Shown here piece by piece: positions 81-56,686 of a stretch of 56,855 bases of DNA. This DNA is from Patescibacteria group bacterium (GTDB lineage: Bacteria; Patescibacteriota; Microgenomatia; UBA1400; PJMF01), in NCBI GenBank assembly GCA_049322575.1, contig JBMORQ010000024.1:1-56855 (forward strand), in the 5' to 3' direction. The position numbers and the translations under genes were made by a program. The stretch's first letter is position 1, and the number at the start of each line of letters is the position of its first letter. Under the pieces are notes generated by a model that saw nothing but the letters and a program-made list of their open reading frames with translations, searched no databases and was not told the origin of the DNA.

Positions 81-273
81 CACTTCAGACTTGCTTGTTA
101 GTTGAATTAGAACGCAGATGCCCTGAACGAATATCGTAGTGAAAAACTGATTTTTTTGAACGAAAAGGGTTTTTTTGAGCGAAGTAGTAGCATAGCTACT
201 TCGAGCGAGAAAAAACCTTTGTAGTACTTAAAAGCAGTTTTGTAATAAAACTGTTATTTCACTACAAGTCTAT
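81..273 (+). repeat. Composite copy of the interspersed repeat family (inverted end modules, internal hairpins), just 3' of infB
   Basis: The right module GCAGTTTTGTAATAAAACTGTTATTTCACTACAAGTCTA lies at 234-272. GTAGTGAAA at 136-144 is the exact reverse complement of TTTCACTAC at 257-265. An internal 8-bp hairpin pairs CGAAGTAG (180-187) with CTACTTCG (196-203). By eye it is about 85-90% identical to 50221-50361. Confidence 0.8.
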
Positions 274-302
274 TGCCAAGACCAACCATAAACAAACTGA
301 TA

Positions 303-1790
303 TTAAAGTAACTCATCCTCTTTCTTATAAGCTACGATCAAGTCTCCCACTCGGAAATCTAAACTTTTGTTCTTGAAAGTCAAGCCTGCCTCGTTTTTGG
401 TTTTGACGACCAAGATGTCATCTTTGCCGTGCTTCATGCTTTTAACCACCGGGTTAGCAATAATTTCCTCACCGCGCTTGAGGTGAAACCAGTCATGTTT
501 CTTGAGTTCGCCGGTTTTTACTTTGATTCCAGCAATTCGCTCACCTTTCATCTCGAAAACCTGCACGATCTCACCTTCACCAGTAACCACTTCGTCGATG
601 GTAGGCTCCATTAACTTGAGCATTTGTTTTTGCAAATCTTCGATTAGGTGGTAGATAATGTCGTACTCTTTAATCCTGACGCCCTGACGCCTTGCCAGTT
701 CTTTAATTTGGCGAGATACCTTGATGTGAAAAGCGATAATCTTGGCACCAGACGTAGCAGCCAATTCAATGTCCTGTTCTGTGATGTTACCAACGCCTGC
801 AGCCAAGAGCTCAACACTTTCCGAATCAATGTTCTGCATCACTGCCTCTAAGGTACCCTTGACGTCGGTGCGAACAATTAGTTTGAGTTTTTCCTGGTCA
901 CTTAGCAAGGAATCAAAGTCTAGCTCACTAAGACTTGAGCCAAGTTCTCTCTCAGTATGAGTCGACTCAAGCTGTGATTCACCAACCTCGATTGAGGAAT
1001 AATCGGCGGCTGCATCCATCACAATCAATCCAACCTCCGGAACATCCTTCAAGCCAACAATTTCGGCTGGAGATCCGGGCCCAACTGATTCAAGCACCTC
1101 ACCACGTTCATTATTGAGAGCTCGAATTCTGCCTTCAACCTTATCTGCAAAAACATCTTGACGGACGCGTAAGGTTCCTTGCTTAACGATAACTCTAGCC
1201 AAGACTCCCTTACGATCATCTTTTGCTGATTCAATCACCACCGCTTTTAGAGGCGCGTCGGGATCTGCCTTAAGTTCAAGCATCTCCGTCATCAGCGCTA
1301 AGTTTTCAAGTAACTCATCAACGCCCTTACCGGTTTTTGCTGAAATCAAGACTGTATCAACTTCTCCACCGAAATCACGTACTAAAACCTCATGCTCGGC
1401 TAACTGGGCTTTGACGTCGTCGGGCCTGACACCTTCTATATCAGTTTTGTTTATTGCGACTATGAAAGGTACCTTACTTTCCTTAATGTATCTGATTGAT
1501 TCAATTGTCTGTGGTTTGACACCATCATTTGCCGCCACTACCAAGACTACAATGTCGGTAACCTTAGCGCCTCGCTGGCGCATCTTATTAAAGGCGGCGT
1601 GGCCGGGAGTATCGATAAAGGTGATTTTGCTACCTTGAAAGTCGATCTGATAAGCACCGATATGCTGTGTAATACCACCTGCCTCACGAGCCTGAACATT
1701 TGTCTTACGGATGTAATCCAAGAGCGAGGTTTTGCCATGATCAACATGACCCATAATGGTAATGATTGGTGGCCTGGTTTGTAAACTCAT
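303..1790 (-). CDS. infB: Translation initiation factor IF-2, short 495-aa form starting directly at the GTPase domain
   Basis: G-domain motifs GHVDHGKT, DTPGH and NKTD are followed by IF-2 C-terminal domains. It lies immediately downstream of nusA, as in the conserved nusA-infB operon. Confidence 0.95.
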   Translation of the reverse strand: MSLQTRPPIITIMGHVDHGKTSLLDYIRKTNVQAREAGGITQHIGAYQIDFQGSKITFIDTPGHAAFNKMRQRGAKVTDIVVLVVAANDGVKPQTIESIRYIKESKVPFIVAINKTDIEGVRPDDVKAQLAEHEVLVRDFGGEVDTVLISAKTGKGVDELLENLALMTEMLELKADPDAPLKAVVIESAKDDRKGVLARVIVKQGTLRVRQDVFADKVEGRIRALNNERGEVLESVGPGSPAEIVGLKDVPEVGLIVMDAAADYSSIEVGESQLESTHTERELGSSLSELDFDSLLSDQEKLKLIVRTDVKGTLEAVMQNIDSESVELLAAGVGNITEQDIELAATSGAKIIAFHIKVSRQIKELARRQGVRIKEYDIIYHLIEDLQKQMLKLMEPTIDEVVTGEGEIVQVFEMKGERIAGIKVKTGELKKHDWFHLKRGEEIIANPVVKSMKHGKDDILVVKTKNEAGLTFKNKSLDFRVGDLIVAYKKEDELL

Positions 1791-1835
1791 GTCGATTTCC
1801 TTTGCGTACTATGATGGCACTAGCCAAGAAATGAT

Positions 1836-3179: not shown

Positions 3180-3220
3180 AGTTTTTCCTTTTCTTTGTTT
3201 TGCTTGATTTTAAGCTAAAT

Positions 3221-3248
3221 AACTGGCAAATGTGCCAGTTTAATTTTT
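3221..3248. terminator. Perfect 8-bp hairpin with a T-rich tail between dnaJ and nusA
   Basis: AACTGGCA-aatg-TGCCAGTT is followed by TAATTTTT on the plus strand and by ATTTAGCTT on the minus strand. Both flanking genes are on the minus strand, so its function as the dnaJ terminator is uncertain. Confidence 0.4.
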
Positions 3249-8774: not shown

Positions 8775-8810
8775 AAATAATTGCAATATTTCAGTTTAGC
8801 TTAAAATTTG

Positions 8811-8842
8811 CATTCGTGTGAAATATGATTTTGTAACGACAG
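8811..8842 (-). repeat. Single copy of the interspersed repeat family, upstream of the YfhO-like gene
   Basis: CATTCGTGTGAAATATGATTTTGTAACGAC matches the left module of the composite copies (compare 37068-37100, TAGACTTCCCGCGAAATATGATTTTGTAG). Confidence 0.6.
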
Positions 8843-15489: not shown

Positions 15490-16635
15490 TTAATGGCTTG
15501 GGTGCAAAGCACACTTTTTCACCAACTCATCAATTTCTCTCATAAAACGTTGCTTGGAAAATTTCTGGGCGTGTTGACGAATTTTTTGTGGATCAAACTT
15601 TATTTGGTCAAATCTACCAATCGCCTCAATCAAGCCAGTCTCACTCAAATCATCAAACAAAACTCCTGTTTGACCATCCACAACCGACTCACGGTAACCG
15701 CCACCGTTGAAAGCGACCACCGGTGTGCCGGCCATCATCGCCTCCACTGGAGTGATACCAAAATCTTCATCACTTGCCAGGGCCAAAAAACCGCGTGCAT
15801 GGGCATAAAGACCAACCAGCTCCTCATCCGGAACAAAACCGAGAAACTCGATTTGTCCGCCACTGGCCAGATCCAAGAGCTCTTGGTACTCAGTGGAATA
15901 GCCGGCCGGTTTGCCCGCAATCTTAAGATTTAAGCCGAGCTTAACGGCCGCCTTAACTGCCAGATCCAAACCCTTGCCACCCACAATCCGCGAAATTATC
16001 AAAAAATAATCGTCGCGTTTTTTGGTTTTGTCCCAATCATCAGCCAAAATGAATTCATCGACTGGAGGATAAATTACCTGGCTGTCGCGTCGGTAAAATT
16101 TTTCAATTCTTCTGGCAACATTCCGAGAATTGGCCACAAATTGATCAACTCGCTGGGCAGCATTGAAGTCATAAAGGCGCATAAAATGGCCAATCAGTTG
16201 GCCATAAACGCGGATCGGCCACCATTTTTGCCATTCAATTGAAGTCGGATACCCGTACAGCCAACGAGGTGGAGTGTGACAGTAACAAATCTCTTTGGCC
16301 TGGTCTTTTTTGGCAAAACCCTTGGTGATATACCAGCTGGCTGAACCAATTATTACGTCGTATCCGGAAAAATCAAAACTATTCCAGATCTGAGGTGCCA
16401 AAAAACGTAAGGGACTGTGGAGTTTACTGGCAAAAAACGGAACCCTTTGAGCCCAAGAGGTGCGGACATCTTTATGTTTAAACCTCTCCCAAGCCGGCGA
16501 ACCAGCGCGATAAAAGGCAGTATAGATTGGTGCATCAGGATAAAGCTTTGAAAGAGCCAACAAGACACGCTCCGCGCCACCAAATTCGTTGAGATAGTCA
16601 TGAACAAGGGCAATTTTGAGAGGGGATTTTTTCAT
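15490..16635 (-). CDS. GT4 family (GT-B fold) glycosyltransferase
   Basis: The N-terminus KIALVHDYLNEFGGAERV and the C-terminal E-x7-E region (EDFGITPVEAMMAGTPV) are typical of group 1 glycosyltransferases. The ATG at 16635 overlaps the upstream stop (ATGA). Confidence 0.85.
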   Translation of the reverse strand: MKKSPLKIALVHDYLNEFGGAERVLLALSKLYPDAPIYTAFYRAGSPAWERFKHKDVRTSWAQRVPFFASKLHSPLRFLAPQIWNSFDFSGYDVIIGSASWYITKGFAKKDQAKEICYCHTPPRWLYGYPTSIEWQKWWPIRVYGQLIGHFMRLYDFNAAQRVDQFVANSRNVARRIEKFYRRDSQVIYPPVDEFILADDWDKTKKRDDYFLIISRIVGGKGLDLAVKAAVKLGLNLKIAGKPAGYSTEYQELLDLASGGQIEFLGFVPDEELVGLYAHARGFLALASDEDFGITPVEAMMAGTPVVAFNGGGYRESVVDGQTGVLFDDLSETGLIEAIGRFDQIKFDPQKIRQHAQKFSKQRFMREIDELVKKCALHPSH

Positions 16636-17282
16636 TCCGGTGAAATCTCTTCCCCAATGTAGGTCATCACCTGTTTCTGAATTGACTTCTTCATCTCCTC
16701 CCAAGAGGTTTCAGAGTCAATTAAACGGGGCATTGGTTGCTGATCGGCATCGATAAAAAAGACTAAAGATTTAATTAGATGACCAGAATTAAAATTTACT
16801 TTTTCATATTTTTTATCAATTGCTGTGAAAATCATATCTAACGAATAATGTTTCAGGATGAAATAAAGATCAACAAAATCTTTTTTGCTACCTCTAGAAC
16901 TAATTGTAATGATTTTTGTACAGGCGATATCTAACACCGAACTTATGTTGATCGATTTTACATTTTGCAAAGATTCCAAGAGTTTATAGGGGTAATTTAA
17001 AAACTGCAATTTCACATCACCCATGAATACATTCAACGTTCCTTGCGCAATTTCAACTGATGATACCTCAGCCAGTTCTTTAAGCTGACTTAGAATAAGT
17101 TCAGGTGAAAAATCCCGCTCACAGAAAAAATCTAGATCTTCTGACTGTCTATGTCCCAACTGAAGCGATAAACCAGTACCGCCAGACAAATAAAAATCAT
17201 CTAGCAAACTTAATCTGCTGTCAGTTAATTTATCAAAAATAGCTCTGGTTTTTGTTGGTAATGTATTTAACTTATACATCAT
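16632..17282 (-). CDS. AbiEii/DUF1814-like nucleotidyltransferase (type IV toxin-like)
   Basis: The motif FYLSGGTGLSLQLGHRQSEDLDFF matches the GGTAL...R.S.D(L/I)DF signature of AbiEii-family NTases. The ATG at 17282 forms an ATGA overlap with the upstream small ORF; the ORF opens at a TTG at 17300. Confidence 0.7.
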   Translation of the reverse strand: MMYKLNTLPTKTRAIFDKLTDSRLSLLDDFYLSGGTGLSLQLGHRQSEDLDFFCERDFSPELILSQLKELAEVSSVEIAQGTLNVFMGDVKLQFLNYPYKLLESLQNVKSINISSVLDIACTKIITISSRGSKKDFVDLYFILKHYSLDMIFTAIDKKYEKVNFNSGHLIKSLVFFIDADQQPMPRLIDSETSWEEMKKSIQKQVMTYIGEEISPE

Positions 17283-17518
17283 GACAAATAACTTTTCCAA
17301 AAATTTTTTGACTTAGAACTAAGTCTATATGATTCGAAGTTATTGAGGATTTCATCCCTTGGTACCTGTTTTAACAACCATGACCAAGAAACAATATCTG
17401 CCTTGTCTAGTATTGTTTCAATAATATACTTTTGGTGAAGTTCCCAATCCAGTTTGGACAAATCATCTCCCCAAAAGTACTTTTTTATGTGACTGGGAAT
17501 AGTAGTAGATAGTGACAT
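17279..17518 (-). CDS. Small 79-aa partner protein of the AbiEii-like NTase
   Basis: KKYFWGDDLSKLDWELHQKYIIETIL...SSKSKNFW resembles the small proteins or domains I recall next to AbiEii-like NTases (FWDVD..LD...H...IIERVL...S.KS.NFW). It is translationally coupled to the NTase. Confidence 0.55.
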   Translation of the reverse strand: MSLSTTIPSHIKKYFWGDDLSKLDWELHQKYIIETILDKADIVSWSWLLKQVPRDEILNNFESYRLSSKSKNFWKSYLS

Positions 17519-17552
17519 ATGATTAATCTGAAGAGTAAACTTAATTTTCTAT

Positions 17553-17590
17553 TAGACTCGTAATAAAAACTCTATTTCGATACGAGTCTA
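17553..17590. repeat. Hairpin form of the interspersed repeat family
   Basis: TAGACTCGTA-(18 nt: ATAAAAACTCTATTTCGA)-TACGAGTCTA forms a 10-bp perfect stem. The loop and right arm match GTAATAAAAA..TTATTTC..TAC.AGTCTA of the family consensus. Confidence 0.8.
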
Positions 17591-17604
17591 TTATAAACCA
17601 ACCA

Positions 17605-18657: not shown

Positions 18658-18737
18658 TTTTTGTCTTGATCAAAAGCTAATCATATTTTTTTCTGGCTGC
18701 AATTAAAGCCAACAAGATCCCTTGAAAAAATCCAGTG

Positions 18738-18765
18738 GGCCTGCTGTGAAATAATAACACAATCT
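18738..18765 (-). repeat. Degenerate copy of the interspersed repeat family
   Basis: GGCCTGCTGTGAAATAATAACACAATC compares with AGACTTGTAGTGAAATAACATTTTTAT. Confidence 0.35.
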
Positions 18766-19194: not shown

Positions 19195-19310
19195 GAAGAC
19201 ATTATGACAATTTATTGTATTTTATTCAATTTTTGTACTGGTTGCCCACTTATGAATGGTGTGGCTGATTTTTTTGACAACTGAACAAAGAAAAAGAAGT
19301 GACGTCAAAA

Positions 19311-36630: not shown

Positions 36631-36658
36631 AGTAAATCTATTGCTAAAAGTAGTTGGA

Positions 36659-37051: not shown

Positions 37052-37067
37052 TCTGTGTCAACTTCAT

Positions 37068-37235: not shown

Positions 37236-37342
37236 TAACAAGTGGCGCAATAGTTCGAGATATAGTTAAGATAAAAATGCTTAAACTCAATTGAGAAGTG
37301 AAGGTCAACATCTATCTCGAGAAAACCGATATATAATACGTC

Positions 37343-38593: not shown

Positions 38594-39765
38594 AACAGCA
38601 ACCAAAAAAACATAAACAAGTTGTGCCTCTCACTTTGGCCATCGATACCTCTTGTGACGATACTTCAGCTGCAGTGGTTTTTGGCAACACAGTTTTGTCA
38701 AATGTCATTGCTTCTCAAACCCAACTGCACAAACCCTATGGGGGTGTCTTTCCAACAGTTGCCAAACAAGCACACCGTCAAAATATTGAGCGAGTGGTCG
38801 ATTTGGCAATCAAAAGAGCCAGGGTGAGTCAAAACGAGCTCTCAGCAGTGGCCGTGACACAAGGACCAGGATTGGCACCAGCGTTAGAAGTAGGTATCGA
38901 GAAAGCAAAAGAAATTGGTCAGCAACTCGATTTGCCAGTTTTTGCCATTAACCATATCGAGGGCCACGCCTTATCATCTCTAGGTAAACCAAGGCATAGA
39001 TCGAGCAAATCGATCGAACAAATTGATCACCAGGAGTTTTTTAGCCTCTTGCAGGCGCAAGGAATCTTTCCAGCCCTATCAATAGTTGTTTCAGGCGGAC
39101 ATACCGAGTTTGTTTTAATCAAAGCGATCGGCAATTACCAAGTACTCGGTGAAACTATCGACGACGCAGCTGGTGAAGCCTTGGACAAGGTGGGACGAAT
39201 GCTTGACCTGGGCTATCCCGCTGGCCCAGTTATGGAACAATTTGCCAAACTTGGAAACCCGAAACGCTTTGATTTTCCTTTACCCATGACCAACAGTCGC
39301 GATTTAAATTTGAGTTTTTCTGGTCTCAAAACCCATGCCCGAAATTTAGTCGAAAAGCTAGAGTCAGAAAACCTCTTAGACAAGCAGGCAAGTTTTGATT
39401 TTGCTGCGTCATTTCAAACAGCGGTCTTCAGGCATATTTCTCACAAATTGAACAAACTTTTACAAGAAGAGACAATTAAGAGCTTTTTGCTGGGCGGAGG
39501 CGTGGCGGCCAACATCGCCCTTCGTCAAAAAATACGCCAAACAATTCACCAAGCAACTCAGTCTCAAGCAAAAACCAAAACCCGAAATCAAAAATATAAA
39601 TTGCTCATCCCTTACAGCAAACGGCTTTGCATGGATAACGCGGCCATGATCGGTTTGGTAGCCAATTTGCGTATGGCAAGTAACCAGACGAATTCCCAGA
39701 AAATCATGCCAAACAGAAACATCGATCGCCAGCCGAGGTTGAGAATATCCTCAATTGTCCGATAA
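38590..39765 (+). CDS. tsaD: tRNA N6-adenosine threonylcarbamoyltransferase TsaD (Kae1/OSGEP family)
   Basis: LAIDTSCDDTSAAVV, HIEGH (metal-binding) and SGGHTE motifs are present. Its start forms an ATGA overlap with the upstream tsaC-tsaE fusion. Confidence 0.9.
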   Translation: MKQQPKKHKQVVPLTLAIDTSCDDTSAAVVFGNTVLSNVIASQTQLHKPYGGVFPTVAKQAHRQNIERVVDLAIKRARVSQNELSAVAVTQGPGLAPALEVGIEKAKEIGQQLDLPVFAINHIEGHALSSLGKPRHRSSKSIEQIDHQEFFSLLQAQGIFPALSIVVSGGHTEFVLIKAIGNYQVLGETIDDAAGEALDKVGRMLDLGYPAGPVMEQFAKLGNPKRFDFPLPMTNSRDLNLSFSGLKTHARNLVEKLESENLLDKQASFDFAASFQTAVFRHISHKLNKLLQEETIKSFLLGGGVAANIALRQKIRQTIHQATQSQAKTKTRNQKYKLLIPYSKRLCMDNAAMIGLVANLRMASNQTNSQKIMPNRNIDRQPRLRISSIVR

Positions 39766-39797
39766 ACAAAGCAAGCTAAAAAGACTATGCAGCAAAA

Positions 39798-39818
39798 AAG
39801 ACTTACTTCGAAATCGAT
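39798..39818 (-). repeat. Degenerate copy of the interspersed repeat family
   Basis: AAGACTTACTTCGAAATCGAT compares with TAGACTTCCCGCGAAATATGAT. Confidence 0.3.
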
Positions 39819-39873
39819 GCCTAAGTCAGAACCCTCTCCAAATATCTATGTTAGCTAAACAAATAGCACAAAC

Positions 39874-39895
39874 TAGCACAACTTCGTGCTACAAT
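39874..39895 (+). promoter_or_regulatory. Inverted repeat overlapping a candidate -10 box 7 nt upstream of the 802-aa ORF start
   Basis: TAGCAC-aacttc-GTGCTA lies at 39874-39891 and TACAAT at 39890-39895. The ATG is at 39903, so the transcript would be near-leaderless. Confidence 0.35.
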
Positions 39896-39902
39896 AGATC
39901 GA

Positions 39903-42311
39903 ATGTCAAACGTGCAGACGACACCGGTTATTGGTCTGCCCCTTAACGTCGGCTGGTCACAAGTAGTTACTAACTCTCGTGGCAGCCTGATATGTGCTTT
40001 TTCCGTTGGTGGAAACAACGCCAACAACTTGGGACGAGATATCGCCGAGGATCTAATCAACAACGAACCCCAAGGCTCCTCCGACTTACATAACACTTTG
40101 CTTGATATTTTGGCAAAAGTAAGACGTTCCAACAACCAACTACAAATTGCTTGTGTTTTATTGATAGATGGGGTCATTACCCTGGCCACACATCAAGGCT
40201 CAATCCTGTTGCGTCGAGGTAATAAAATCGGGCGTATCCTTTCTTCAGCAGCTGAGCCAAGGATTGTTGAAGGCCAATATAAACCTGAAGACCTCTACGT
40301 ACTCTGCACTCTCCAGGGTTTCCCATATCAAGAGGAAATAAAAATTAAGCTTTCTCAGGGCTTCGACGTCGATACCGTTATCACTTCAATCGTCCCCGAG
40401 CTTCATAGTCAAAATAACTCCTCGTTGTCGGCCTTTGCCTTTGTCGAGGTAAAACAACAATCGTCACCTCGGGTGGTGGAGGTCGAGACAATGCTCGAGG
40501 AAGCAGAAGCCCAGCCGCTTGCCCAACCAGCCATTACCACCATCTCTCGGCCTACGTCGGCTGCAGCTGTTGAGTCGATTACTAAACCGGATCAGTTGCA
40601 TGTAACTGAAAAACCAAGTGTTCAGACAGTTTCTCAACCGGTTTCCATGACTTCCAACCAAACATCTAGATCAGACAAAGACGTGATTACCGATCCGGTC
40701 CAACCAGCAACATTCAACAACCACATAGATCACCAAGAAACAACTCAACAAAATACCAAGAGAACAAATTTGCCTGATCAAAACCCAGTAATTCCTACCG
40801 GCATGATACAACCAGGAATAACAACTCAGCAGTTTGGCCAAGGATCATTTTCAACCCAAGTGGCTCAACCCAACTACACCGATCAAACCATGCAAACTGC
40901 CACAATTCCACTGTCTAACTCTCAAGAACAGACGAGACCGAGCAAAGAGCCACGAAGCTTTAACTTGCCTAAAATTTCTCTTTCGCCTCCCAAGATCGCT
41001 AAAACCAGCCTGGGAAAAATTGGGCAACTTAGGCAATTTCCCATGCGTGAGACCTTAAAAAAGATTGGCCTAACTGTCTTGAGCATTCTTAGAAAAATCT
41101 GGTCAAAAATCCTAATTGTCTTACAAGTCACCCTGAGCTTAATAAAGTTTTTGATTGCTAAGATCCGTCGCCAACCAGATCATCTGTCTTTCCGTGACAA
41201 AAACCACCTTCGTAACCAGCTGCGCAATCTGCTCATTGTTGCTCTGGTCTTGGTCGCTTTTGCCGTGGCTGTCTTGTGGTATCAATGGCAAAAAAATGCT
41301 GACATATCCGCAATAAACCAAGAATTAGAGCCATATAACCAACGACTAGCCGACGCCAAGAAACTTGCTGAGAGTGATGTCTTGCAGGCAAGAGCAGCCA
41401 CCAATGAAGTCATGAATGGACTACGAAGCTTAGCTGAAAAAAATCAAGACAATAAAAGACGCTTTGAGCTGGTCAAAATCAAACTACTCGAAACCCAACA
41501 ATTCTCTGATCAAATTGCCGGATTGGAGCAGATGAGCCAATTACCAGTTTTCTTCGATCTTCGACTAGTGCAAACCGGCTTCATAATCAACAAAACAGAA
41601 ATCTACGAACAAACTGGCTTTTTCCTAGACACAGAAAAAAAGCAAATCGTCAAACTCGACCTCGAAAAAAAGCAGGCGAAACTCATCTCGCTACCCGATG
41701 CAACTCCCAAACCAAAAGATATGGTTTACGGTGAACAAGCTGTCTTTCTACTCGGCGATGGAATCCGTAAAATCGCCAACAAAGGTGAGGGCAACATCAC
41801 AACTCTCAAAGAAGCCGGCGATTCAGATCGCGACGGCACAATTTTGACCAACTTCGGCAAGTATCTTTATGTCTTCAACCCTGAGAAACGAAATATCTAC
41901 CGCTATCTAATAGATGATAGCAGCCTAAGCGAGCCAATCGGCTGGCTGGTAGACAAACAAGGCTTGGATTTCGCCGAGATCAGCTCGATGACTATTGATG
42001 GTGACCTTTGGTTAACGACCAAAGGCGGTGAAATCAAGAAGTACAACAAAGGTAATCGGAGCGATTTCCAGATTATAGGGATGGAGAAGCCCTTCCAGTC
42101 CAACATTCTACTCTTTACCAAAGAAAACGTTGACAATCTCTACATAATCGAGCCTGACCAAAAACGACTTGTCATTTTGAATAAGCAGGGCCAATTTCTG
42201 CGAGAGATTAAAAGCGAGTCCTTTGCATCTGCAACCTCTCTGGTGGTCACAGAAGACAACAAAAAAGTTTTAGTGATCAGTGGCTCAATCATCTTTGAAG
42301 TTGAGATATAA
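39903..42311 (+). CDS. Large hypothetical membrane protein (802 aa) with an N-terminal globular domain, a Q/T/P/S-rich low-complexity linker, a TM helix, a coiled coil and a beta-rich C-terminal domain
   Basis: A long uninterrupted ORF with a hydrophobic helix LLIVALVLVAFAVAVLWYQW near residue 465. The C-terminal ~250 aa have repetitive beta-strand-like segments (propeller-like). No catalytic motif recognised. Confidence 0.75.
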   Translation: MSNVQTTPVIGLPLNVGWSQVVTNSRGSLICAFSVGGNNANNLGRDIAEDLINNEPQGSSDLHNTLLDILAKVRRSNNQLQIACVLLIDGVITLATHQGSILLRRGNKIGRILSSAAEPRIVEGQYKPEDLYVLCTLQGFPYQEEIKIKLSQGFDVDTVITSIVPELHSQNNSSLSAFAFVEVKQQSSPRVVEVETMLEEAEAQPLAQPAITTISRPTSAAAVESITKPDQLHVTEKPSVQTVSQPVSMTSNQTSRSDKDVITDPVQPATFNNHIDHQETTQQNTKRTNLPDQNPVIPTGMIQPGITTQQFGQGSFSTQVAQPNYTDQTMQTATIPLSNSQEQTRPSKEPRSFNLPKISLSPPKIAKTSLGKIGQLRQFPMRETLKKIGLTVLSILRKIWSKILIVLQVTLSLIKFLIAKIRRQPDHLSFRDKNHLRNQLRNLLIVALVLVAFAVAVLWYQWQKNADISAINQELEPYNQRLADAKKLAESDVLQARAATNEVMNGLRSLAEKNQDNKRRFELVKIKLLETQQFSDQIAGLEQMSQLPVFFDLRLVQTGFIINKTEIYEQTGFFLDTEKKQIVKLDLEKKQAKLISLPDATPKPKDMVYGEQAVFLLGDGIRKIANKGEGNITTLKEAGDSDRDGTILTNFGKYLYVFNPEKRNIYRYLIDDSSLSEPIGWLVDKQGLDFAEISSMTIDGDLWLTTKGGEIKKYNKGNRSDFQIIGMEKPFQSNILLFTKENVDNLYIIEPDQKRLVILNKQGQFLREIKSESFASATSLVVTEDNKKVLVISGSIIFEVEI

Positions 42312-42436
42312 AACTTGAAGATAATTCATCTGTGCTCTATACATGCTGTTTGACAAGAAATTAACTTTAGGTTTCGTGCCGCTGAGTAAATGCCAATCTG
42401 CAGCAAGCAACCCAAGAAAGACTGTTAAAATATACA

Positions 42437-42566
42437 TAGACTTCCTACGTAATAGACTTGTATGGCACTGCTACTAGTTTTGATATTTGTAAAGAATTCA
42501 TACTCGCAGGAACAAGCCTCTCTCTGAGGACAAGCAATAAAAATGCTAATACCAAGCAAGTCGAAT
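42437..42566 (+). repeat. Diverged composite copy of the interspersed repeat family upstream of smpB
   Basis: Left cores TAGACTTCCTACGTAATA (42437) and TAGACTTGTATGGCACTGC (42453) are present. The right module GCAATAAAAATGCTAATACCAAGCAAGTCGAAT (42534-42566) ends 28 nt before the smpB ATG. Confidence 0.6.
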
Positions 42567-42594
42567 GAAATAATACCCGGCAGGAAGCCATACT

Positions 42595-43038
42595 ATGCTC
42601 TTAGCGATCAATAAACGTGCAAAAAGTGAATATGAAATCAACAAAACCTACCAAGCTGGCATAGTTTTATCTGGCAGTGAAGTAAAAAGTCTCCGTAACA
42701 AGCATGCAAGTTTCCTTGGCAGTTATGTCAAAATTTTGCAAAATGAAGCCTTTTTGCTAAACGCACAAATCAATCCCTACAAATTCTCAAACAACGATGA
42801 TTACGATCCCAAACGTAGCCGTAAATTGTTACTCAAAAAACGAGAAATTCAGGGATTGATTGCTGTCAGCGACCAAAAAGGATGGGCGGTTGTACCACTC
42901 TCTTTTGAGCTTGTCGGTAATAAGATTAAACTCAATCTTGGTGTTGGAAAAGGCAAAAAAGTCTACGAAAAACGTCAAGATATCAAAAAACGAGATCTTG
43001 AGAGAGAAACTTCGAGAGAAATGAAATATCGTCTTTAG
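42595..43038 (+). CDS. smpB: SsrA-binding protein SmpB
   Basis: INKRAKSEYEI...GIVLSGSEVKSLR...RKLLLKKREI are typical SmpB motifs in a 147-aa protein. Confidence 0.93.
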   Translation: MLLAINKRAKSEYEINKTYQAGIVLSGSEVKSLRNKHASFLGSYVKILQNEAFLLNAQINPYKFSNNDDYDPKRSRKLLLKKREIQGLIAVSDQKGWAVVPLSFELVGNKIKLNLGVGKGKKVYEKRQDIKKRDLERETSREMKYRL

Positions 43039-43095
43039 CTGAGTTTGCAATACAATGGAGTGACACAATTAGAATGACATTCTGCAGGGAATTCA

Positions 43096-44661
43096 ATGAA
43101 AGCTCCAGTCAATTTCTGTTTGCGTACCGTGTCAAGTGAGCTATTTTTGCTTTTTTTGCTGCTTTTCTCATATCTTATTTTCTTGATCCAACCCATCTCC
43201 CTAACAACTACTGATTTAGGTCGCCATCTGGCAAACGGTCGAGAAATATTAGCGGCAAATCATCAAATTCTCTTTAAGAACGTTTACTCATACACCATGC
43301 CGGAACAAGCCTTCGTCAACCACCACTGGCTGAGCGGCCTGATTTTTTATCTGATTACCCTTCCAGGCAGAACCAGCCAGCTGGGCTTGGTCATGCTTCA
43401 GCTGGCATTTGCGACCCTCTCGGTCAGCACTTTTTTATTGTTTTATACTGGCATTCGCCGATTAAGCACTTGGAAGATTGCTTCGTTACTATCCCTACTA
43501 TTCGTCTTTGTTTTTGGGCATAGGACTGAGATTCGCCCCGAAGTTTTTGGTTATTTTTTCATTAGTGTCTATCTAATCATCGTCCAAAAAATTCAACAAA
43601 ATCATCAGCTTAGTCTAAGCTCAATTGTTTTGTTACTCGCCCAACAACTTCTCTGGACAAACTTGCATATTTCCTTTTTCTTTGGCCCAATGATCTTCTT
43701 CCTCTTGGTGCTTGAAAAGCTTTTCTACAGTCGATTTAAACTCACGAAAGATGTTAAGAAACTAATATTTGCCTTTATTAGCTTGATGGTTGTTTCGATT
43801 ATTAATCCCAACCATTTTTTTGGCCTATTGCAACCTTTGTCAATTTTCCATAACTACGGCTATGACGTTGTGGAAAATAAAGACTTAATTTTTCTGCTGA
43901 GTTATTTCAATATGACGTCGGTGGCAATTGTTTTATTAGCGGCAGCCTTTTGCCTCGCTTTGCTAGTTTTTTACTATAAAAAGATCCAACCTTTCTACTT
44001 GGCGTTAGCAGCAATCGGTGTTTTGCTCGGTGTCGGAGCGCTACGCAACATTACGCTTTTTATTCTGTTCTCTGGGCCATTGCTTGCCCTCGGCACACAA
44101 AACCTGCTCGATGATGTGAGAAACAAGCTCAAAATTACTTGGCAAAAGTCACAGAGCTTAATTTTCCTTGTGATTCTAGCTGTGACTATGTCACTACTCG
44201 CAAGTTCTGGCAAAATTAAAGCAAATGCTATGTTGTCCACGATTCAGCTTGGCTTAGCCACTAGTCAGGCAGAAGGAGCAATCTATTTCAAGAACAATCA
44301 GCTGAAAGGACCAATTTTCAATGACTTTGATCTGGGTAGCTACCTCATCTTCTACCTTTATCCGCAAGAAAAGGTCTTCGTTGACAATCGCCCTGAGGCT
44401 TTTTCGGTCAATTTTTTCCAAAAAACCTATATTCCCATGCAACTTGATGAAAATCTTTGGCAAGAACAATTGGCCAAATATAATTTCCAAACAATCTTTT
44501 TTCGCACGGCCGACTACACTCCTTGGGCAAGACAATTCCTGAGGAAGCGGCGTGATGATCCTGCCTGGAGAAAGGTACAAGAAAACCAGGATACTATTAT
44601 TTTTGTCAGAAACGATAAACCTAATTCCAGCCCTATGACGGGCGCGCAAACTTTCAACTGA
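43096..44661 (+). CDS. Polytopic membrane protein (521 aa), possibly a GT-C-like glycosyltransferase
   Basis: It has about 12 predicted TM helices and an early loop motif TTDLGRHLANGREI...HHWLSG. The family assignment is uncertain. Confidence 0.65.
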   Translation: MKAPVNFCLRTVSSELFLLFLLLFSYLIFLIQPISLTTTDLGRHLANGREILAANHQILFKNVYSYTMPEQAFVNHHWLSGLIFYLITLPGRTSQLGLVMLQLAFATLSVSTFLLFYTGIRRLSTWKIASLLSLLFVFVFGHRTEIRPEVFGYFFISVYLIIVQKIQQNHQLSLSSIVLLLAQQLLWTNLHISFFFGPMIFFLLVLEKLFYSRFKLTKDVKKLIFAFISLMVVSIINPNHFFGLLQPLSIFHNYGYDVVENKDLIFLLSYFNMTSVAIVLLAAAFCLALLVFYYKKIQPFYLALAAIGVLLGVGALRNITLFILFSGPLLALGTQNLLDDVRNKLKITWQKSQSLIFLVILAVTMSLLASSGKIKANAMLSTIQLGLATSQAEGAIYFKNNQLKGPIFNDFDLGSYLIFYLYPQEKVFVDNRPEAFSVNFFQKTYIPMQLDENLWQEQLAKYNFQTIFFRTADYTPWARQFLRKRRDDPAWRKVQENQDTIIFVRNDKPNSSPMTGAQTFN

Positions 44662-44888
44662 TTCGATCTCTTGCGAAATAAAAACTTCCAACGAGAACTT
44701 ATTTTTTGAGTGGAAAGAGATTTGCAGTGCCAAGCAGCTTAAAAGTTGCGCAAGTTAGCAACCAAGCCATTTCAGCGGTGACAACGGTAGCAGCAACAAA
44801 AATGGCAAAAGTTCAGCCAATCGGAACTGCTAACAAATGCTAAATTAGGCACGATGCTTTCCGGAAAGTGCATGCCAATAACAAATAC

Positions 44889-50165: not shown

Positions 50166-50363
50166 TACACTTCCCGAGAAACAATCTCTAATTAAATAGA
50201 CCGTAGCAAAACAAGATTTTGTAGTGAGAAACTGATTTTTTTGAGCGAAAAGGGCTTTTTTGAGCGAAGTAGTAGTATAGCTATGCCTAGAATGAGAAAA
50301 CTAACCTTATAGTACTTATAAGGCAGTTTTGTAATAGAAATGTTATTTCACTACAAGTCTAAT
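50166..50363 (+). repeat. Composite copy of the interspersed repeat family between the 318-aa ORF start and the nrdJ stop
   Basis: The left part TACACTTCCCGAGAAAC...GATTTTGTAGTGAGAAACTGATTTTTTT is followed by a core nearly identical to 136-273. An internal 7-bp hairpin is CCTTATA-gtact-TATAAGG (50304-50322). The right module is GCAGTTTTGTAATAGAAATGTTATTTCACTACAAGTCTA. Confidence 0.8.
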
Positions 50364-50465: not shown

Positions 50466-53400
50466 CTATATCGGACAAGCCCCTGACTCACACCTCAGGT
50501 GCTCCATATTAATATCTTCAGCCAAGGCATTTTCGTCACTAATCTCACGTACTATCTTCATAAACTCATTGATGGTAACGGCTTCTTCTGGTTGATACTC
50601 ATAAGCGGTGGCATCGACATGTGGCATGACTGAGCAGGTCTTGATTTGAGGCTGGTATCGGGAAATCATGGCCGTGAATTTCTTAAAGCTGACTTTCTTT
50701 GGATTGTACTTAAGTGTGTATGAAATCTGATTACCATGGTCCTCAGCTAAAGGCTTGCCATTTTCGTCAACACCTACAATCCAGTATTTCTCAAGAAGCA
50801 TCAGCCATCTGAACTGCTCTGCTGGGGTTGCTTCGCTGGCGGTCACTAGTTTGTCACCCATATCTAGACGACAAATTTCTGGCTGAGTGGGAAAGCCAAC
50901 CACGGTTGTGCCTTGATAACTGCGAAGGTCCTTGGTGGGATAGCCCATGCGACGGTATTTTTTGACCAGCGGATCATCGCTTCTAAACTGCACCCAGCGC
51001 AAGTACTCACGCATTGCCGGTAGATGGGCTCCCTCTGACAAGCTAAAAAGCTTGGAGGTGGTACCAGCTGGCTTGATGGTTGTGTTGGTATGAGGTACAT
51101 TAACGCCCAGTCTCTGAGAATATTTACGAGCCTCATCGTCCACCGCTCGGCGAAACCGAGCCAAGGTCATCCAAAAATCCTTTGACTTTTTTTCGTTAAT
51201 TAGATCACGAAAGCCATAGCCAAAAGCATTCCAAGCGTACTCATGCACGCCTGTCATGCCCACACCAATCCTATTTGTACGACGCACCTCACGGCTATAC
51301 AAACTATCCATAAAAGAGTTAACCCTGATTAAAGCCCGTGTGGCAACCCGGAAAGCTTCCTCGGCGGCATCTGCATTGGGCGTATGGTACGGAACCACGT
51401 CAGCAATCACACAATAACCGCCCAACATGTTTAAAGTAATTTCTCCGCAAGGGTTGGGTATCTGGGTATAGTATTTAGCACTAGCGTGTTTGGCTATTTG
51501 AGCCATCATTTTGATCGAACGGCGCATTGGCTGATATTTCTGACTCATGGCGTATTTGCCATCAAGATAGCCATCAAAACCATCGTCGTTCTGGACTAGC
51601 TTATGCTGATTAATAAATCCTGGTTCACCTGTTAAGTCATAATAAGAAGCTCGCAAAACCTCCCTTAACACTCGCTGAGAGTGCTTGCTGCGCTGTTTCC
51701 AAAATTTATCATCGACAGCTACGCTGTTATTAGCAGACCAAAGAAAGCCTCCGCGTTTTATTGAGATAAAGTCGGAAATTGCAGCATCTGTCCAGCTTTT
51801 GGTTGCAATACGCGCTGCCCTCCTGGCACCTCCAACCAAGACACATTCCGAGAGGTAGTGATCAACAAACAAGGTCTGCTTCCAAGGCTCCATGTGAGCG
51901 TTCTTAACAGTGGCAACCTTGGCAATCGCCTTCATCAAAGGTCTCGGACCAGAAGCTGGTCGATTTTGCATACCCTTTATCAGAGAACCCTTGGGTCTAA
52001 CCTTAGAAAAATCGATAATCAGCATGTCACTCTTAAATTTCTTCTCGTATGTCATTACCTCGATTTGCTCTACTGCCTGGGCCCAACCCTCACGGGTATC
52101 AGGCACTTCAAACCAATGAGCTTTGTCATATTTGTGTTTGGCATCGCGCACGCTTTCATCCTCGCCCCACAAGAAATCTGGATGTTTCTCATCTAAGACC
52201 AAGCGAATATCTGGCATAAAATCCCAGTCAACCACCATTAGATCATCGTCGTAGGCCCGACCTACACCAGAACCGTTTAGCAACAAGTAAAAAAGGAGAA
52301 AAGAGCTTGATGCGGTACTGCAGTTGCCAGTAAGCAGCCCATTAGACAAAACGAAACCTGTTGTAACAGGTTCTTCAACACAATAAACTTCTTCTTCGCC
52401 AACTAATTCAATGCTCGCAACTTTACGAATTGCTGATCTGCTAAGTCTAATACAATGCAGGGTTTTTCCATTTGCGTAACTACCATCACCTTCTTTTCTT
52501 TCAAAGACCCGATGAGAAGTAATAATATAACCAGCATATGCTGCGTAGTTTTCCAACCATTCGATTGCATCCTCTCTAGTTGTAGAGATTTCGATACTAA
52601 CAGTATTTGTCAAAGTTTTGGAACCATCAGCCATCCACCATCCTTTGATAAATCCGGCTATATAAGAAGGATCGACCGTGAATGGCAAATCTTTTAAAAA
52701 TGATTTTCTACCCAAATATACGACTGCGTCTCCTTTTGCATGCTTGGGATAATGGATTCTATATTGGCTGAAAAAATCTAAATATTTTTTATCTTTTCCG
52801 CACAACCTGATAGCAGGATAATCTCTACCCTGTGCAGCAATAACATCTGGATAGTCACGACGATTTTTGTGTGCTGAACCATCGCCAAAAATCAAACCGT
52901 GTTGAATTCCTTCTATTGATTCTTCTTCTAATGTTGGAACTGTCATTAAACAATCACCAACTTTTATTTCATCCGTTACTAAACCATTTTCTAAAAACCA
53001 TCTGTGATTCTTTGTTGCAATAACCTCATGAGAATAATTGCTAGTACCAGTTTTTGGTACAAAAGTAATTTTGTATAATTTTTGAATACCGTATGCATCT
53101 ACTTTAGCTTCTCTCCACTCACCATCAGCTGCCTTAACAGTCACATTCTCCCCCGAAATACTGCCAATAGCTACTGAACCAAATTCCTGAGTAAGAATTT
53201 TTGTATTTTTTTCTAGACAGTTAGTGAAAACTTCCATATTTCTGCCTGGCTGAGTTTCGTCACCATGTTGCAGGTGGCGTCCACTCAATAAAATCGAAGC
53301 GTTAGCTATATGCTTTTTAAGCAGTTCTTTTTCTTCTTTGCGATGGGCTTTGTATTTCTCTGGCAAAAGCCCCGAATTGCCTTCTGCCACGCGCTCTGCG

Positions 53401-53552
53401 ACATCTTCCCAGCTTTCTATCTCACCATTCTGCTTTGTCCGCAAAATCGTGCGCTTGGCAACAGCCTCACCCAAACCACTCGACAATTGCCTAATCTTGA
53501 AGCTCATTTTTTTCTTGGGTAGAGTACTGGCTACTTTCTTGTCTGGCGACAT
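50466..53552 (-). CDS. nrdJ: Class II (adenosylcobalamin-dependent-type) ribonucleoside reductase NrdJ, interrupted by an in-frame intein
   Basis: The thiyl-radical loop IPNPCGEI and a C-terminal redox Cys pair CESGAC are present. There is no ATP cone and no adjacent small subunit. The extein is about 729 aa once the 299-aa intein is removed. Confidence 0.88.
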   Translation of the reverse strand: MSPDKKVASTLPKKKMSFKIRQLSSGLGEAVAKRTILRTKQNGEIESWEDVAERVAEGNSGLLPEKYKAHRKEEKELLKKHIANASILLSGRHLQHGDETQPGRNMEVFTNCLEKNTKILTQEFGSVAIGSISGENVTVKAADGEWREAKVDAYGIQKLYKITFVPKTGTSNYSHEVIATKNHRWFLENGLVTDEIKVGDCLMTVPTLEEESIEGIQHGLIFGDGSAHKNRRDYPDVIAAQGRDYPAIRLCGKDKKYLDFFSQYRIHYPKHAKGDAVVYLGRKSFLKDLPFTVDPSYIAGFIKGWWMADGSKTLTNTVSIEISTTREDAIEWLENYAAYAGYIITSHRVFERKEGDGSYANGKTLHCIRLSRSAIRKVASIELVGEEEVYCVEEPVTTGFVLSNGLLTGNCSTASSSFLLFYLLLNGSGVGRAYDDDLMVVDWDFMPDIRLVLDEKHPDFLWGEDESVRDAKHKYDKAHWFEVPDTREGWAQAVEQIEVMTYEKKFKSDMLIIDFSKVRPKGSLIKGMQNRPASGPRPLMKAIAKVATVKNAHMEPWKQTLFVDHYLSECVLVGGARRAARIATKSWTDAAISDFISIKRGGFLWSANNSVAVDDKFWKQRSKHSQRVLREVLRASYYDLTGEPGFINQHKLVQNDDGFDGYLDGKYAMSQKYQPMRRSIKMMAQIAKHASAKYYTQIPNPCGEITLNMLGGYCVIADVVPYHTPNADAAEEAFRVATRALIRVNSFMDSLYSREVRRTNRIGVGMTGVHEYAWNAFGYGFRDLINEKKSKDFWMTLARFRRAVDDEARKYSQRLGVNVPHTNTTIKPAGTTSKLFSLSEGAHLPAMREYLRWVQFRSDDPLVKKYRRMGYPTKDLRSYQGTTVVGFPTQPEICRLDMGDKLVTASEATPAEQFRWLMLLEKYWIVGVDENGKPLAEDHGNQISYTLKYNPKKVSFKKFTAMISRYQPQIKTCSVMPHVDATAYEYQPEEAVTINEFMKIVREISDENALAEDINMEHLRCESGACPI
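52323..53219 (-). mobile_element. Intein (299 aa) with a LAGLIDADG homing-endonuclease domain inside nrdJ
   Basis: The extein/intein junctions are EVFTN|CLEKNTKIL (Cys1) and VLSNGLLTGN|CST (terminal Asn, +1 Cys). Block B is IATKNH. LAGLIDADG-type motifs are GLIFGDGSA and YIAGFIKGWWMADGS. Block F/G is VYCVEEPVTTGFVLSNGLLTGN. Confidence 0.88.
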
Positions 53553-53697
53553 GTTTATTTCTCCAAATCAGACCTCTAGTTAAATATCGATTCGAATAAT
53601 GTTCGAAAACTGTGCTTTGCTGTATTTTTCTAGAAGTCACTTAATAATTTGTAAGTCTTTTTAGGTTTTATCGGTTGTACCCTGCATCAGGGACGAA

Positions 53698-55029: not shown

Positions 55030-55174
55030 AAAGTTATGAAGGCATAATTATACCACTTTTGCTAACTTTTATTGCAGTATTATTAACGCAACCAATCAAA
55101 TTTACACTAATAAATCTGATAGGCCTGTGGCGGAATATCATTCCTGTACGAAATTTACTCTGCCACCAATCCAA

Positions 55175-55930
55175 TTAAAAATGAACAAGTAAAACCATTC
55201 CCCAAATGGCGTGTGACAAAACCAATGCAAAGCCATTCTTTTCACTCGCAAACAAATATCCTTGGCCCAAAGAAAAAAGGGCCAGTAACATAATTTGATA
55301 GGCAATCTCAACCCCACTGAACCGCAAAACGATGTTTGGTAAGTGAAAAACTGTAAAGACTAGCATCACCAGCAAAAGTTGGTTTAGTAATGGCCAGCGT
55401 CGATATTTTTCCTGAACAATTAACATGACAAAGCTGTAGAAAAAGAGAGTCTCCCAAAAACCGGTAAGCATCGCCAGTAAAAACTCCCACCAAAAGGCGT
55501 CAGAAACGTAAAAGGCAGCATTGGCCCAGTGACCGGATCTTTGAAAAGAACCTAAAATAGCGGCGATAAAACCATAGATGCCACCGATGGCGATACCCAT
55601 CCAAAGTCCTCTTTTAATTTTCTGCAAAGAAAAACTCTCTGCAATCTGAAAACTGCTCGTGGCGGTCATGTACAACCAAACAGGCATTCCCAGAAAGACG
55701 GCTTTACCTATCAACTCATCGAACCAAACCTCAAAACTAAACAAGCTGCGATAAACAACCCAGAGGATAAACACCAAAAAAACAAATGGTAAAAACAAAA
55801 AATGATTTTTGCCAGAAACCTTCTGACTTGTCTTTGATTTAACTTCCCAGCCAGAACCTAAAGAGTTCTGGCTTTTTCTTTTAGCGAATTGAGATATCTT
55901 GGCAGGTTTATCTTTATTTTTTGATGGCAT
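55175..55930 (-). CDS. CPBP (CAAX protease/Abi)-like intramembrane protein with partly degenerate motifs
   Basis: A multi-TM protein with FTVFHLPN (FxxxH) and SHAIWG (HxxxN-like). The EExxxR motif is reduced to WETLFF. Confidence 0.45.
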   Translation of the reverse strand: MPSKNKDKPAKISQFAKRKSQNSLGSGWEVKSKTSQKVSGKNHFLFLPFVFLVFILWVVYRSLFSFEVWFDELIGKAVFLGMPVWLYMTATSSFQIAESFSLQKIKRGLWMGIAIGGIYGFIAAILGSFQRSGHWANAAFYVSDAFWWEFLLAMLTGFWETLFFYSFVMLIVQEKYRRWPLLNQLLLVMLVFTVFHLPNIVLRFSGVEIAYQIMLLALFSLGQGYLFASEKNGFALVLSHAIWGMVLLVHF

Positions 55931-56537
55931 TCATCACAATCTCATAAGTCTGTTTTTGGTTATTAGAATAAGTATCAATAACAATATCGTAGAGATCTGG
56001 ATGCCAAAAATCAATTGGAGCTTCTGCACTCAAAGTACCAGCAGTTACTACCCACTCCTGCCATTCCTTACCATACATCCTGGTCCATTTGTTTAAATTA
56101 GTCTGATAACGGTTCTGGATGTCGGTCTTTGCTTTTTCAACCGTGGCGTTGTCACGATTGACAATCCGGTCAATTCTGACTGAGTCGTCACTACAAATCA
56201 CCAAGACTTTTAGAACGTCCTTTAACCCCTGGGCTAAAAAGCCAGAAAGCCAAGACTCAATGATCCAATTACTCTGACCTTCAAGCTTAGAACGCATACC
56301 CATATCAACTTGACGATCGAAGTCATCACTATAAGCCTCAGCAGTGTGGTGTATCTTGTCGTTTGCATCGATCAAGCCTTTTTCTGCGGCGTAGGCCCTC
56401 ATAAACTCTCCTCCGGAAAAACCAGTCCAACCGTCAAACTTCAAACCTTCGCGCAGTAAATTTAGCAGAGTAGTTGAGCCACATCCTGGCAGACCAGAAA
56501 TGGTAATATTTTTGTACTTGTAATCTTTGCCAGGCAT
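55914..56537 (-). CDS. P-loop nucleoside monophosphate kinase-like protein (cytidylate kinase-like family 2)
   Basis: It has the Walker A motif ISGLPGCGSTT at the N-terminus with NMP-kinase-like length. It overlaps the downstream gene by 17 nt. Confidence 0.65.
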   Translation of the reverse strand: MPGKDYKYKNITISGLPGCGSTTLLNLLREGLKFDGWTGFSGGEFMRAYAAEKGLIDANDKIHHTAEAYSDDFDRQVDMGMRSKLEGQSNWIIESWLSGFLAQGLKDVLKVLVICSDDSVRIDRIVNRDNATVEKAKTDIQNRYQTNLNKWTRMYGKEWQEWVVTAGTLSAEAPIDFWHPDLYDIVIDTYSNNQKQTYEIVMNAIKK

Positions 56538-56590
56538 GTTTTTTTCCTCTCTGATTATTAAATAGATTTATTACTGAAATGACTAATATC

Positions 56591-56686
56591 AAACTTGTTG
56601 CGTTGTAACATTTTTATCACCTTTGTAGCAAAAAGTGCTATCTATATTCTACTAAACTTGGTGCTAAATAACATTTCCATTACGAT
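56591..56686 (-). repeat. Two direct copies of the repeat-family core, 63 nt apart, upstream of the kinase-like gene
   Basis: AAACTTGTTGCGTTGTAACATTTTTATCACC starts at 56591 and AAACTTGGTGCTAAATAACATTTCCATTACGAT at 56654. Both are the reverse complement of the family consensus. Confidence 0.65.

Follow-up and report, generated by a model that had tools for sequence, protein, structure and literature searches.

The window analysed here is the whole stretch of 56,855 nt at positions 1 to 56,855 of contig JBMORQ010000024.1, from a Patescibacteria group bacterium. It is ordinary housekeeping DNA in which most genes lie on the minus strand, and its genes include infB, nusA, dnaJ, dnaK-grpE-hrcA, ftsH, a gene for a Xer-like recombinase, ftsB, groES/EL, and yidC and, further, tsaC-tsaE, tsaD, smpB, cmk, a gene for a class A penicillin-binding protein, nrdJ, and nrdR. 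Scattered between these genes is a short repeat whose complete copies are bounded by terminal inverted repeats (TIRs), and it is this repeat, interpreted as a family of putative transposable elements of the miniature inverted-repeat kind (MITEs) related to an insertion sequence (IS), that is described here.

The preliminary description of the window had reported the motif as a dispersed intergenic repeat family and the counts bear this out. The sequence CACTACAAGTCTA, allowing up to 2 mismatches, was found 7 times in the window when 0.88 matches were expected and none of 100 shuffles reached 7, and an nhmmer search with a 45-nt model seeded from the clear copies gave 9 matches at E<=1e-6. For the 20-nt end TAGACTTGTAGYGAAATAAC the counts are 9 sites with no more than 4 mismatches (0.07 expected) and 15 sites with no more than 5 (0.92 expected). 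All 15 are outside open reading frames (ORFs) and tRNA genes, the chance probability of which is about 1e-13 on the basis that at most 13.9% of the window is non-coding. When up to 6 mismatches were allowed there were 25 sites compared to 6.6 expected, which makes the share due to chance about one quarter overall and about half at exactly 6. There are about 15-17 TIR ends in 57 kb, belonging to a non-coding, multicopy family with elements of 36-163 nt. The nine copies that had been called clear are all real and lie where they had been placed. Among those listed as half or degenerate copies, the ones at 29456, 35725, and 8811 hold up, with 5 mismatches or with 80% identity over 30 nt to another copy, but those at 13861, 18738, 30638, 36605, and 39798 have 6 or more mismatches and each is individually uncertain. 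Decayed ends at 3204, 53569, and 55120 are additional to that list.

In all, the window contains three 163-nt copies, one 126-nt copy, two 53-nt copies, and one 36-nt copy, these seven being the elements in which two inverted ends are present, and about ten solo or decayed ends. Every complete element begins with AGACTTGTAG(C/T)GAAATA(A) and closes with the reverse complement of it. The four architectures that had been distinguished earlier are real but they are not separate kinds and are instead size classes of one element: the composites are the 163-nt copies, the hairpins are the 53-nt and 36-nt copies, the tandems are adjacent decayed copies, and the single copies are solo ends. The copies are as follows, where a strand is given for ends and remnants and none for elements with two inverted ends, and where MITE is used in the putative sense given above.

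84-108, plus strand: TIR-like remnant (TTCAGACTTGCTTGTTAG...) adjoining the 109-271 copy; weak, below the 5-mismatch threshold, and uncertain.
109-271: 163-nt MITE with an ATT/ATT duplication (106-108 and 272-274); the right TIR is perfect (0 mismatches, 253-272) and the left TIR is degenerate (AGAACGCAG...); 82% identity to 50198-50360; E=6e-23 against the cross-genome MITE profile.
3204-3223, plus strand: decayed solo TIR with 5 mismatches, upstream of nusA at 25 nt from its start codon.
8806-8835, plus strand: left-end remnant of a 163-nt-type copy, 80% identity over 30 nt to 37066-37095.
17554-17589: 36-nt mini-element made of two TIR cores, with a perfect ATT/ATT duplication.
23902-23921, plus strand: solo TIR with 3 mismatches, 156 nt upstream of ftsH; a TIR-like fragment (23887-23901) precedes it.
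29360-29412: 53-nt mini-MITE with a perfect ATT/ATT duplication, 79% identity to 31204-31256.
29456-29475, plus strand: decayed solo TIR with 5 mismatches.
31204-31256: 53-nt mini-MITE with a perfect AAT/AAT duplication and 1 mismatch in each TIR.
35729-35748, minus strand: decayed solo TIR with 5 mismatches, the first three bases of which (35748-35746, TAA) are the yidC stop codon.
37069-37231: 163-nt MITE with a perfect ATT/ATT duplication, E=5e-20 against the cross-genome MITE profile; between divergent genes, a 130-aa ORF and tsaC-tsaE.
42438-42563: 126-nt degenerate MITE with CAT/AAT flanks (2/3 match), 32 nt upstream of smpB; a tandem TIR fragment is at its left end.
50167-50197, plus strand: TIR-like remnant (ACACTTCCCGAGAAACAA...) adjoining the 50198-50360 copy.
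50198-50360: 163-nt MITE with a perfect AAT/AAT duplication, 0 mismatches at 50342-50361, and E=8e-23 against the MITE profile; between a 318-aa ORF and the 3' end of nrdJ.
53569-53588, plus strand: decayed TIR with 5 mismatches; it lies upstream of nrdJ, 17 nt from its start, and may be the left end of a roughly 80-nt decayed element.
55120-55139, plus strand: decayed solo TIR with 5 mismatches.
56590-56672, plus strand: two equally oriented TIRs at a distance of 63 nt (56590-56609 with 6 mismatches and 56653-56672 with 4 mismatches); most simply two neighbouring decayed mini-elements.

The three 163-nt copies are 70-82% identical to each other in pairwise comparison and the two 53-nt copies are 79% identical. 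Because the divergence among them is 18-30%, the copies in the window look old and not recently active.

When the species-representative genome collection was examined, the exact 18-mer TATTTCRCTACAAGTCTA was found at 76 loci of other genomes. By record title these are mostly Patescibacteria (Collier-, Pace-, Woese-, Gottesman-, and Daviesbacteria, Saccharibacteria, and the Parcubacteria group), and the 18-mer is also present in a metagenome-assembled genome (MAG) of 55% GC titled 'Clostridiales', in MAGs titled Gammaproteobacteria or Pseudomonadales, and in two archaea-labelled MAGs, one of Woesearchaeota (L019) and one of Methanoperedenaceae (L041). In every case the sequence similarity among these loci stops sharply at ...AAGTCTA, and on the interior side the sequence is variable between genomes and conserved inside one genome. 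A sharp edge together with a genome-specific interior is what the terminus of an element looks like. Most copies are inverted pairs of the form TAGACTTG...CAAGTCTA with a span of 42-184 nt and modes near 51 and 163-166 nt, and 57 such pairs in the related loci are non-redundant. There are also mini-elements of 51-53 nt, in which a loop of about 15 nt joins two TIRs. One Patescibacteria MAG, JAHIVK01, has them at several unrelated sites (L015, L023, L024, and L057), and there, as at 29360-29412 and 31204-31256 of the window, each has its own duplication. Units as small as 51-53 nt therefore seem to have been mobilised. An alignment of the 163-166-nt copies, from 13 genomes that belong to different phylum-level lineages, has in common a short central hairpin AAGTAGnCnnnGCTACT (AGTAGC...GCTACT) and flanking T-runs.

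The bases that flank the elements were then compared. In the register in which AGAC...GTCT is preceded and followed by ANT, the flanking 3-mers are identical in 36 of the 57 non-redundant elements, and in the same 57 elements duplication lengths of 1, 2, 4, and 5 gave identical flanks in only 3, 3, 0, and 0 cases, respectively. The consensus of the duplicated target is ANT, in most cases AAT or ATT. Its variable middle base agrees between the left and the right flank in 44/57 elements compared to 22.6 +/- 3.4 when the flanks were permuted, and none of 10,000 permutations reached 44. Duplications that depart from the consensus match as well (ACT/ACT, TTT/TTT, and AGT/AGT, and in the wider family TAT/TAT and AAG/AAG). 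In the window the duplication is perfect in 6 of the 7 complete copies. It follows from the flanks that the outer T and A of TAGAC...GTCTA, like the trailing '(A/T)T', are duplicated target and not part of the element. The TA dinucleotides that had been described as flanking the hairpin forms accordingly come down to the base with which the left duplication ends and the base with which the right one begins.

This bears directly on whether the family could be a MITE of the Correia or RUP kind, moved by an IS630/Tc1-mariner type of transposase with duplication of TA. Correia and RUP elements duplicate TA, and the elements here do appear to open with TA-GAC and close with GTC-TA. Such a mechanism, however, predicts that the outer bases are uncorrelated, which is not what the 44 matching pairs out of 57 show, and elements with TTT, TAT, or AAG flanks have no TA at all. 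Moreover, the transposase of the full-length elements described below matches DDE_Tnp_4 and IS5-family models. We consider this identity exceedingly improbable, and a TA-duplicating mechanism, IS630-like or Correia-like, is ruled out by the flank statistics.

The same 18-nt ends were found to bound three elements of 1018-1074 bp in other genomes (L044:5727-6744, L058:1563-2636, and L056:4-1024), the hosts of which are Paceibacterota, Daviesbacteria, and Collierbacteria MAGs. Each of these full-length elements has one ORF of 298-314 aa. The three ORFs match the Pfam family DDE_Tnp_4 at 93-96 bits (cut-off 24.8) and DDE_Tnp_1 at 54-67 bits (cut-off 23), one of the three has a match to HTH_Tnp_4 at 26.3 bits, just under the cut-off of 27, and no other transposase family scored comparably to the DDE_Tnp_4 and IS5 models. 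The three transposases are 44-56% identical to one another and the ends of their elements are nearly identical. With a length of 1.00-1.07 kb, TIRs of about 18 nt, and a duplication of 3 bp, these elements fit the dimensions of the IS5 family (about 0.8-1.5 kb), and from their profile matches the partner transposases appear to be a divergent branch of that family.

This branch extends well beyond the Patescibacteria. When the Collierbacteria transposase was compared to plasmids by tblastn, homologues of about 36% identity were found in Nostoc punctiforme, Leptolyngbya boryana, and other cyanobacteria, and in these cyanobacterial records the elements measure about 1.0 kb and have the inverted repeats TAGACTTGTCGGGAAATAAG and TAGAGTTGTTGGGAAATA at their ends, with AAT flanks in the Nostoc record. 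A transposase profile matched at least 539 loci in the genome collection, mostly of cyanobacteria and also of ANME-1, Halobacteria, other archaea, Curtiss- and Peregrinibacteria, Chloroflexi, Planctomycetes, and Bacteroidales. Eighty of these loci were kept, and in 50 of the 80 the ends TAGAsyTGTyGnGAAATA lie 1.0-1.3 kb apart (mostly 1.00-1.06 kb). Full-length relatives are present in isolate genomes too, for example in Nostoc punctiforme PCC 73102 and Leptolyngbya boryana. At positions 8-13 the TIR varies from lineage to lineage, and the two ends of one element agree there; a likely reading of this is that the ends co-evolve with their own transposase. In the source annotations the transposases are called only 'transposase family protein', and the cluster names are generic and carry no ISfinder name. 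Full-length relatives with the same TIR consensus were also observed in ANME-1, Halobacteria, and other archaeal MAGs (L087, L092, L108, L114, L115, and L126). The presence of the Patescibacteria-type 18-mer and of the TIR consensus in archaea-labelled contigs suggests that the element may have spread between domains.

The preliminary description had likened the layout of the motif to that of repetitive extragenic palindromic (REP) elements and the bacterial interspersed mosaic elements (BIMEs) built from them, which are mobilised by REP-associated tyrosine transposases (RAYTs, IS200/IS605-like Y1). The repeats are indeed intergenic and palindromic, their core contains GTAG (TTGTAGCG), they occur in single, paired, and composite forms, and the window holds no DDE transposase. 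REPs and relatives of IS200/IS605, on the other hand, make no target-site duplication, and both the 3-bp duplication and the DDE (IS5-family) partner, whose genes are bounded by the same ends in other genomes, contradict this identity. In addition, GTAG occupies the internal positions 8-11 of the TIR instead of its 5' tip, and sister elements have GTTG or GTCG in its place. A tblastn search and the annotation of the window ORFs found no transposase or other mobile-element gene in the window, a RAYT/Y1-like ORF included, just as had been noted before. Mobilisation by a RAYT can thus be given practically no weight, but the suggestion that the composites with inverted ends are MITE-like was correct.

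Taking together what is directly seen, namely ends shared with transposase-bearing elements, a 3-bp duplication, size classes with their own flanks, a strictly intergenic location, and the patchy distribution in relatives that is described below, we conclude with a probability of roughly 93% that the motif is the TIR of an IS5-family cut-and-paste transposon of the DDE_Tnp_4 type and that the window holds non-autonomous, non-coding derivatives of it, that is, MITEs. A probable course of events is that a transposase supplied in trans would bind both identical ends (AGACTTGTAGCGAAATA), excise the element, and insert it at a 3-bp ANT target, as expected from its family membership. The flanks show that the target, mostly AAT or ATT, is duplicated on insertion. 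The short forms would have arisen by internal deletion, and at least the 51-53-nt class would itself have been copied to new sites, because copies at different loci, two in the window and several in one MAG, have their own duplications. The intergenic location may come about because AT-rich spacers offer AWT targets and because insertions inside genes would be removed by selection.

Several points weigh against this conclusion. The AAT/ATT consensus overlaps the target preference and some identical flanks could be coincidence, although the permutation test on the middle base and the non-consensus cases disfavour this. The best NCBIfam model, transpos_IS5_4, matches the partner transposases at 88-98 bits, which is below the IS5 equivalog cut-off of 140. 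No autonomous copy was found in the 57-kb window of this organism or in one identical 24-kb contig. The best relatives available for comparison share only 50-80% amino-acid identity and the 'empty' sites in them are not base-precise. Lastly, most solo ends in the window face a start codon, a tendency that is not significant and is reversed in a larger sample, as discussed next.

A rival reading takes the motif for a regulatory site, whether a promoter, an operator, or an UP-like element, upstream of many housekeeping genes and with its AAGTCTA end toward the start codon. Many of the ends in the window do lie 17-160 nt upstream of start codons and about 6 of the 7 solo ends point toward one. 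The subterminal sequence that is specific to the window can be read as TTGTAA-N17-TACAAG, and TAGACT resembles a -10 hexamer; one match of the promoter scan (29337-29364) uses TAGACT but it reads into the element. However, the conserved block is the end of a transposase-bearing IS with target-site duplications, and in the 76 related loci (110 ends) the paired ends face gene starts and gene stops in a ratio of 42:39 and the solo ends in a ratio of 10:19. The orientation bias is thus not borne out as a property of the motif: a complete element has one end each way, and when it lies between co-directional genes one end points toward a 3' end. The count of 11 copies versus 4 that had been given for this bias arose because each complete element has two outward-facing ends. 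No fixed spacing is seen in the distances to start codons, which range between 17 and 460 nt. The sigma-70-like sites are not enriched (31 compared to 34 +/- 4.8 expected) and include none that points outward at the end of an element. Other genomes do not conserve the subterminal TTGTAA. A promoter or operator as the origin of the motif is therefore very unlikely, and it is conceivable that some copies have secondarily come to be used as promoters.

Another explanation is that the copies are a structured non-coding RNA or a terminator module in which the hairpin is the selected feature. The complete copies are long imperfect palindromes, the 163-nt copies of different genomes share the central hairpin mentioned above, and several copies are located right behind stop codons. 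Two TIRs with a foldback origin would, however, be palindromic in any case. The 50197-50360 copy folds with unremarkable stability (z = -1.55), the hairpins lack a T-tract behind them, and the terminator-like sites of the scan all lie off the elements. An Rfam check of the composite copies, which had been suggested at the outset, matched no family at the gathering score, nor did the 163-nt copies match one even at E<=1; in the whole window the Rfam search at the gathering threshold found two tRNAs only. We therefore regard a selected RNA structure as extremely unlikely, and retain the MITE interpretation in what follows.

The stretch of the window between 21 and 54 kb shows synteny, with proteins 50-80% identical, to CP011212.1 (L077), its metagenome twin L081, a Parcubacteria-group MAG (L078), and Pacebacteria UBA6188 (L079). 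In 21 kb each of L077 and L081 there was no TIR match, L078 has one 166-nt element, and L079 has one 27-nt mini-element, so that about a dozen ends in the corresponding stretch of the window compare with 0, 0, 1, and 1 elements in the four relatives. The spacer upstream of tsaC-tsaE, which in the window contains a 163-nt copy, appears much shorter in L078 from the tblastn coordinates and no TIR was detected in it. The elements of L078 (5345-5510) and L079 (3483-3509) have a common left junction within the last codons of the gene upstream of smpB, and L077 is uninterrupted at this junction. Since the copy near smpB in the window (42438-42563) differs from these two in position, it is an independent insertion. 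The pattern in the relatives fits a lineage-specific amplification. An element directly upstream of smpB was thus observed in three related genomes (the window, L078, and L079) and in neither L077 nor L081, which could reflect a hot spot or retention. A protein-anchored search for closer relatives found only 44-53% identity, and the window-specific subterminal pattern TAGYGRAATAACATTTNTATTAC had 0 matches in genome contigs and metagenome contigs. It was also observed that L077, L078, and L079, which are syntenic and have 72-84% DNA identity, are titled TM6, Parcubacteria group, and Pacebacteria, respectively; some record labels look unreliable or, alternatively, the element crossed phyla. The window from 32801 to 44789 is 100% identical to a contig assembled from SRR32167786 (L165), which points to a source for the rest of the genome; look-ups of identical proteins turned up nothing besides this contig.

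Some other features of the window were recorded. NrdJ (50466-53552, minus strand) is 1028 aa long, of which alignments with its relatives cover only residues 6-112 and 410-1028. The additional segment of about 297 aa (about 52326-53216) has a LAGLIDADG_3 match (E=4.5e-6), and its most likely identity is that of an intein carrying a homing endonuclease. At 16632-20288 the housekeeping genes are interrupted by a small group of accessory genes, which encodes a fragment of an AbiEii-type nucleotidyltransferase toxin (first third of the profile only), a potassium-channel-like protein, and a RhuM/Fic-domain protein. Two divergent tRNA-Met(CAT) genes are 160 nt apart, one at 30741-30810 on the minus strand, which scores 45 bits, and the other at 30970-31044 on the plus strand, which scores 72 bits.

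Each of the three inward-reading frames of the TIR contains a stop codon (TAG at positions 1 and 9, TAA at position 17), and 16 of 153 ends examined (about 10%) close an open frame of at least 100 codons, for example at L023, L046, L049, L054, L013, and L014. Insertions at the extreme 3' ends of genes would be tolerable because of these stops. One may ask whether the family is more than junk, with units of 36-53 nt that would be among the smallest mobile DNAs, and with elements that have been co-opted as gene-end or gene-start modules or that move between co-habiting bacteria and archaea. This idea is based on the tiny units, the stops in three frames, the ends that serve as gene stops (that of yidC in the window), and the central hairpin that recurs across phyla; we put it forward tentatively and think it improbable on the whole.

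With an apparently unknown regulatory or REP-like motif turning out to be transposon ends, the mystery is removed. It had been stated that a match to a known IS end would take away the novelty, and this is so to the extent that MITEs derived from IS5-family elements are of a known type, an ordinary form of selfish DNA; a literature search found no description of MITEs in Patescibacteria and no paper with the TIR sequence. The TIR (AGACTTGTAGYGAAATA) and the 3-bp ANT duplication are now defined for a widespread and poorly annotated branch of the IS5 family that is present in cyanobacteria, archaea, and candidate phyla. In a reduced genome of the Patescibacteria type the MITE family makes up a noticeable share of the non-coding DNA of the window. 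Such elements can be mistaken for regulatory motifs, and knowing them aids annotation and gives markers for strain typing. The repeats may also break metagenome assemblies: in the 'Clostridiales' MAG, many copies are no more than about 100 nt away from the end of a locus or contig.

Among known systems, REPs and BIMEs are alike in being intergenic palindromic repeats with GTAG that occur singly and as composites, but the family in the window differs from them in having a target-site duplication, a DDE partner, and a 163-nt unit with defined ends, and no RAYT gene was found. Nezha, a cyanobacterial MITE tied to ISNpu3, was considered as a counterpart and rejected because it has a 10-bp direct repeat (PMC6042816). 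The classical MITEs, such as Correia of Neisseria, RUP of S. pneumoniae, and Nezha of Anabaena and Nostoc, are small, non-coding, multicopy, and largely intergenic, and like the elements here they have TIRs in common with a full-length IS, flanking direct repeats, and the potential to form hairpins (PMC3184786). They differ in that they belong to other transposase families and have other duplications, and the mini-forms of 36-53 nt in the window are unusually short by comparison. The closest known systems are IS5-family ISs with a DDE_Tnp_4 (PIF/Harbinger-like) transposase, an example of which is the multicopy element of Nostoc punctiforme PCC 73102 (WP_012406904.1, pNPUN02 224881-225885), with other homologues in Leptolyngbya, in ANME-1 and Halobacteria archaea, and in Curtissbacteria. 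Unlike the Nostoc type of IS, the window has only non-coding derivatives of 36-163 nt and the Patescibacteria subgroup has the TIR variant GTAGYG at positions 8-13, and the Patescibacteria transposases are only about 36% identical to those of the cyanobacterial ISs. Nevertheless, the TIR consensus is the same, TAGACTTGTCGGGAAATAAG in Nostoc and TAGACTTGTAGCGAAATAA here, and the full-length elements of Patescibacteria share with the Nostoc element the 3-bp duplication (AAT in Nostoc), a length of 1.0-1.07 kb, and a single ORF of about 300 aa.

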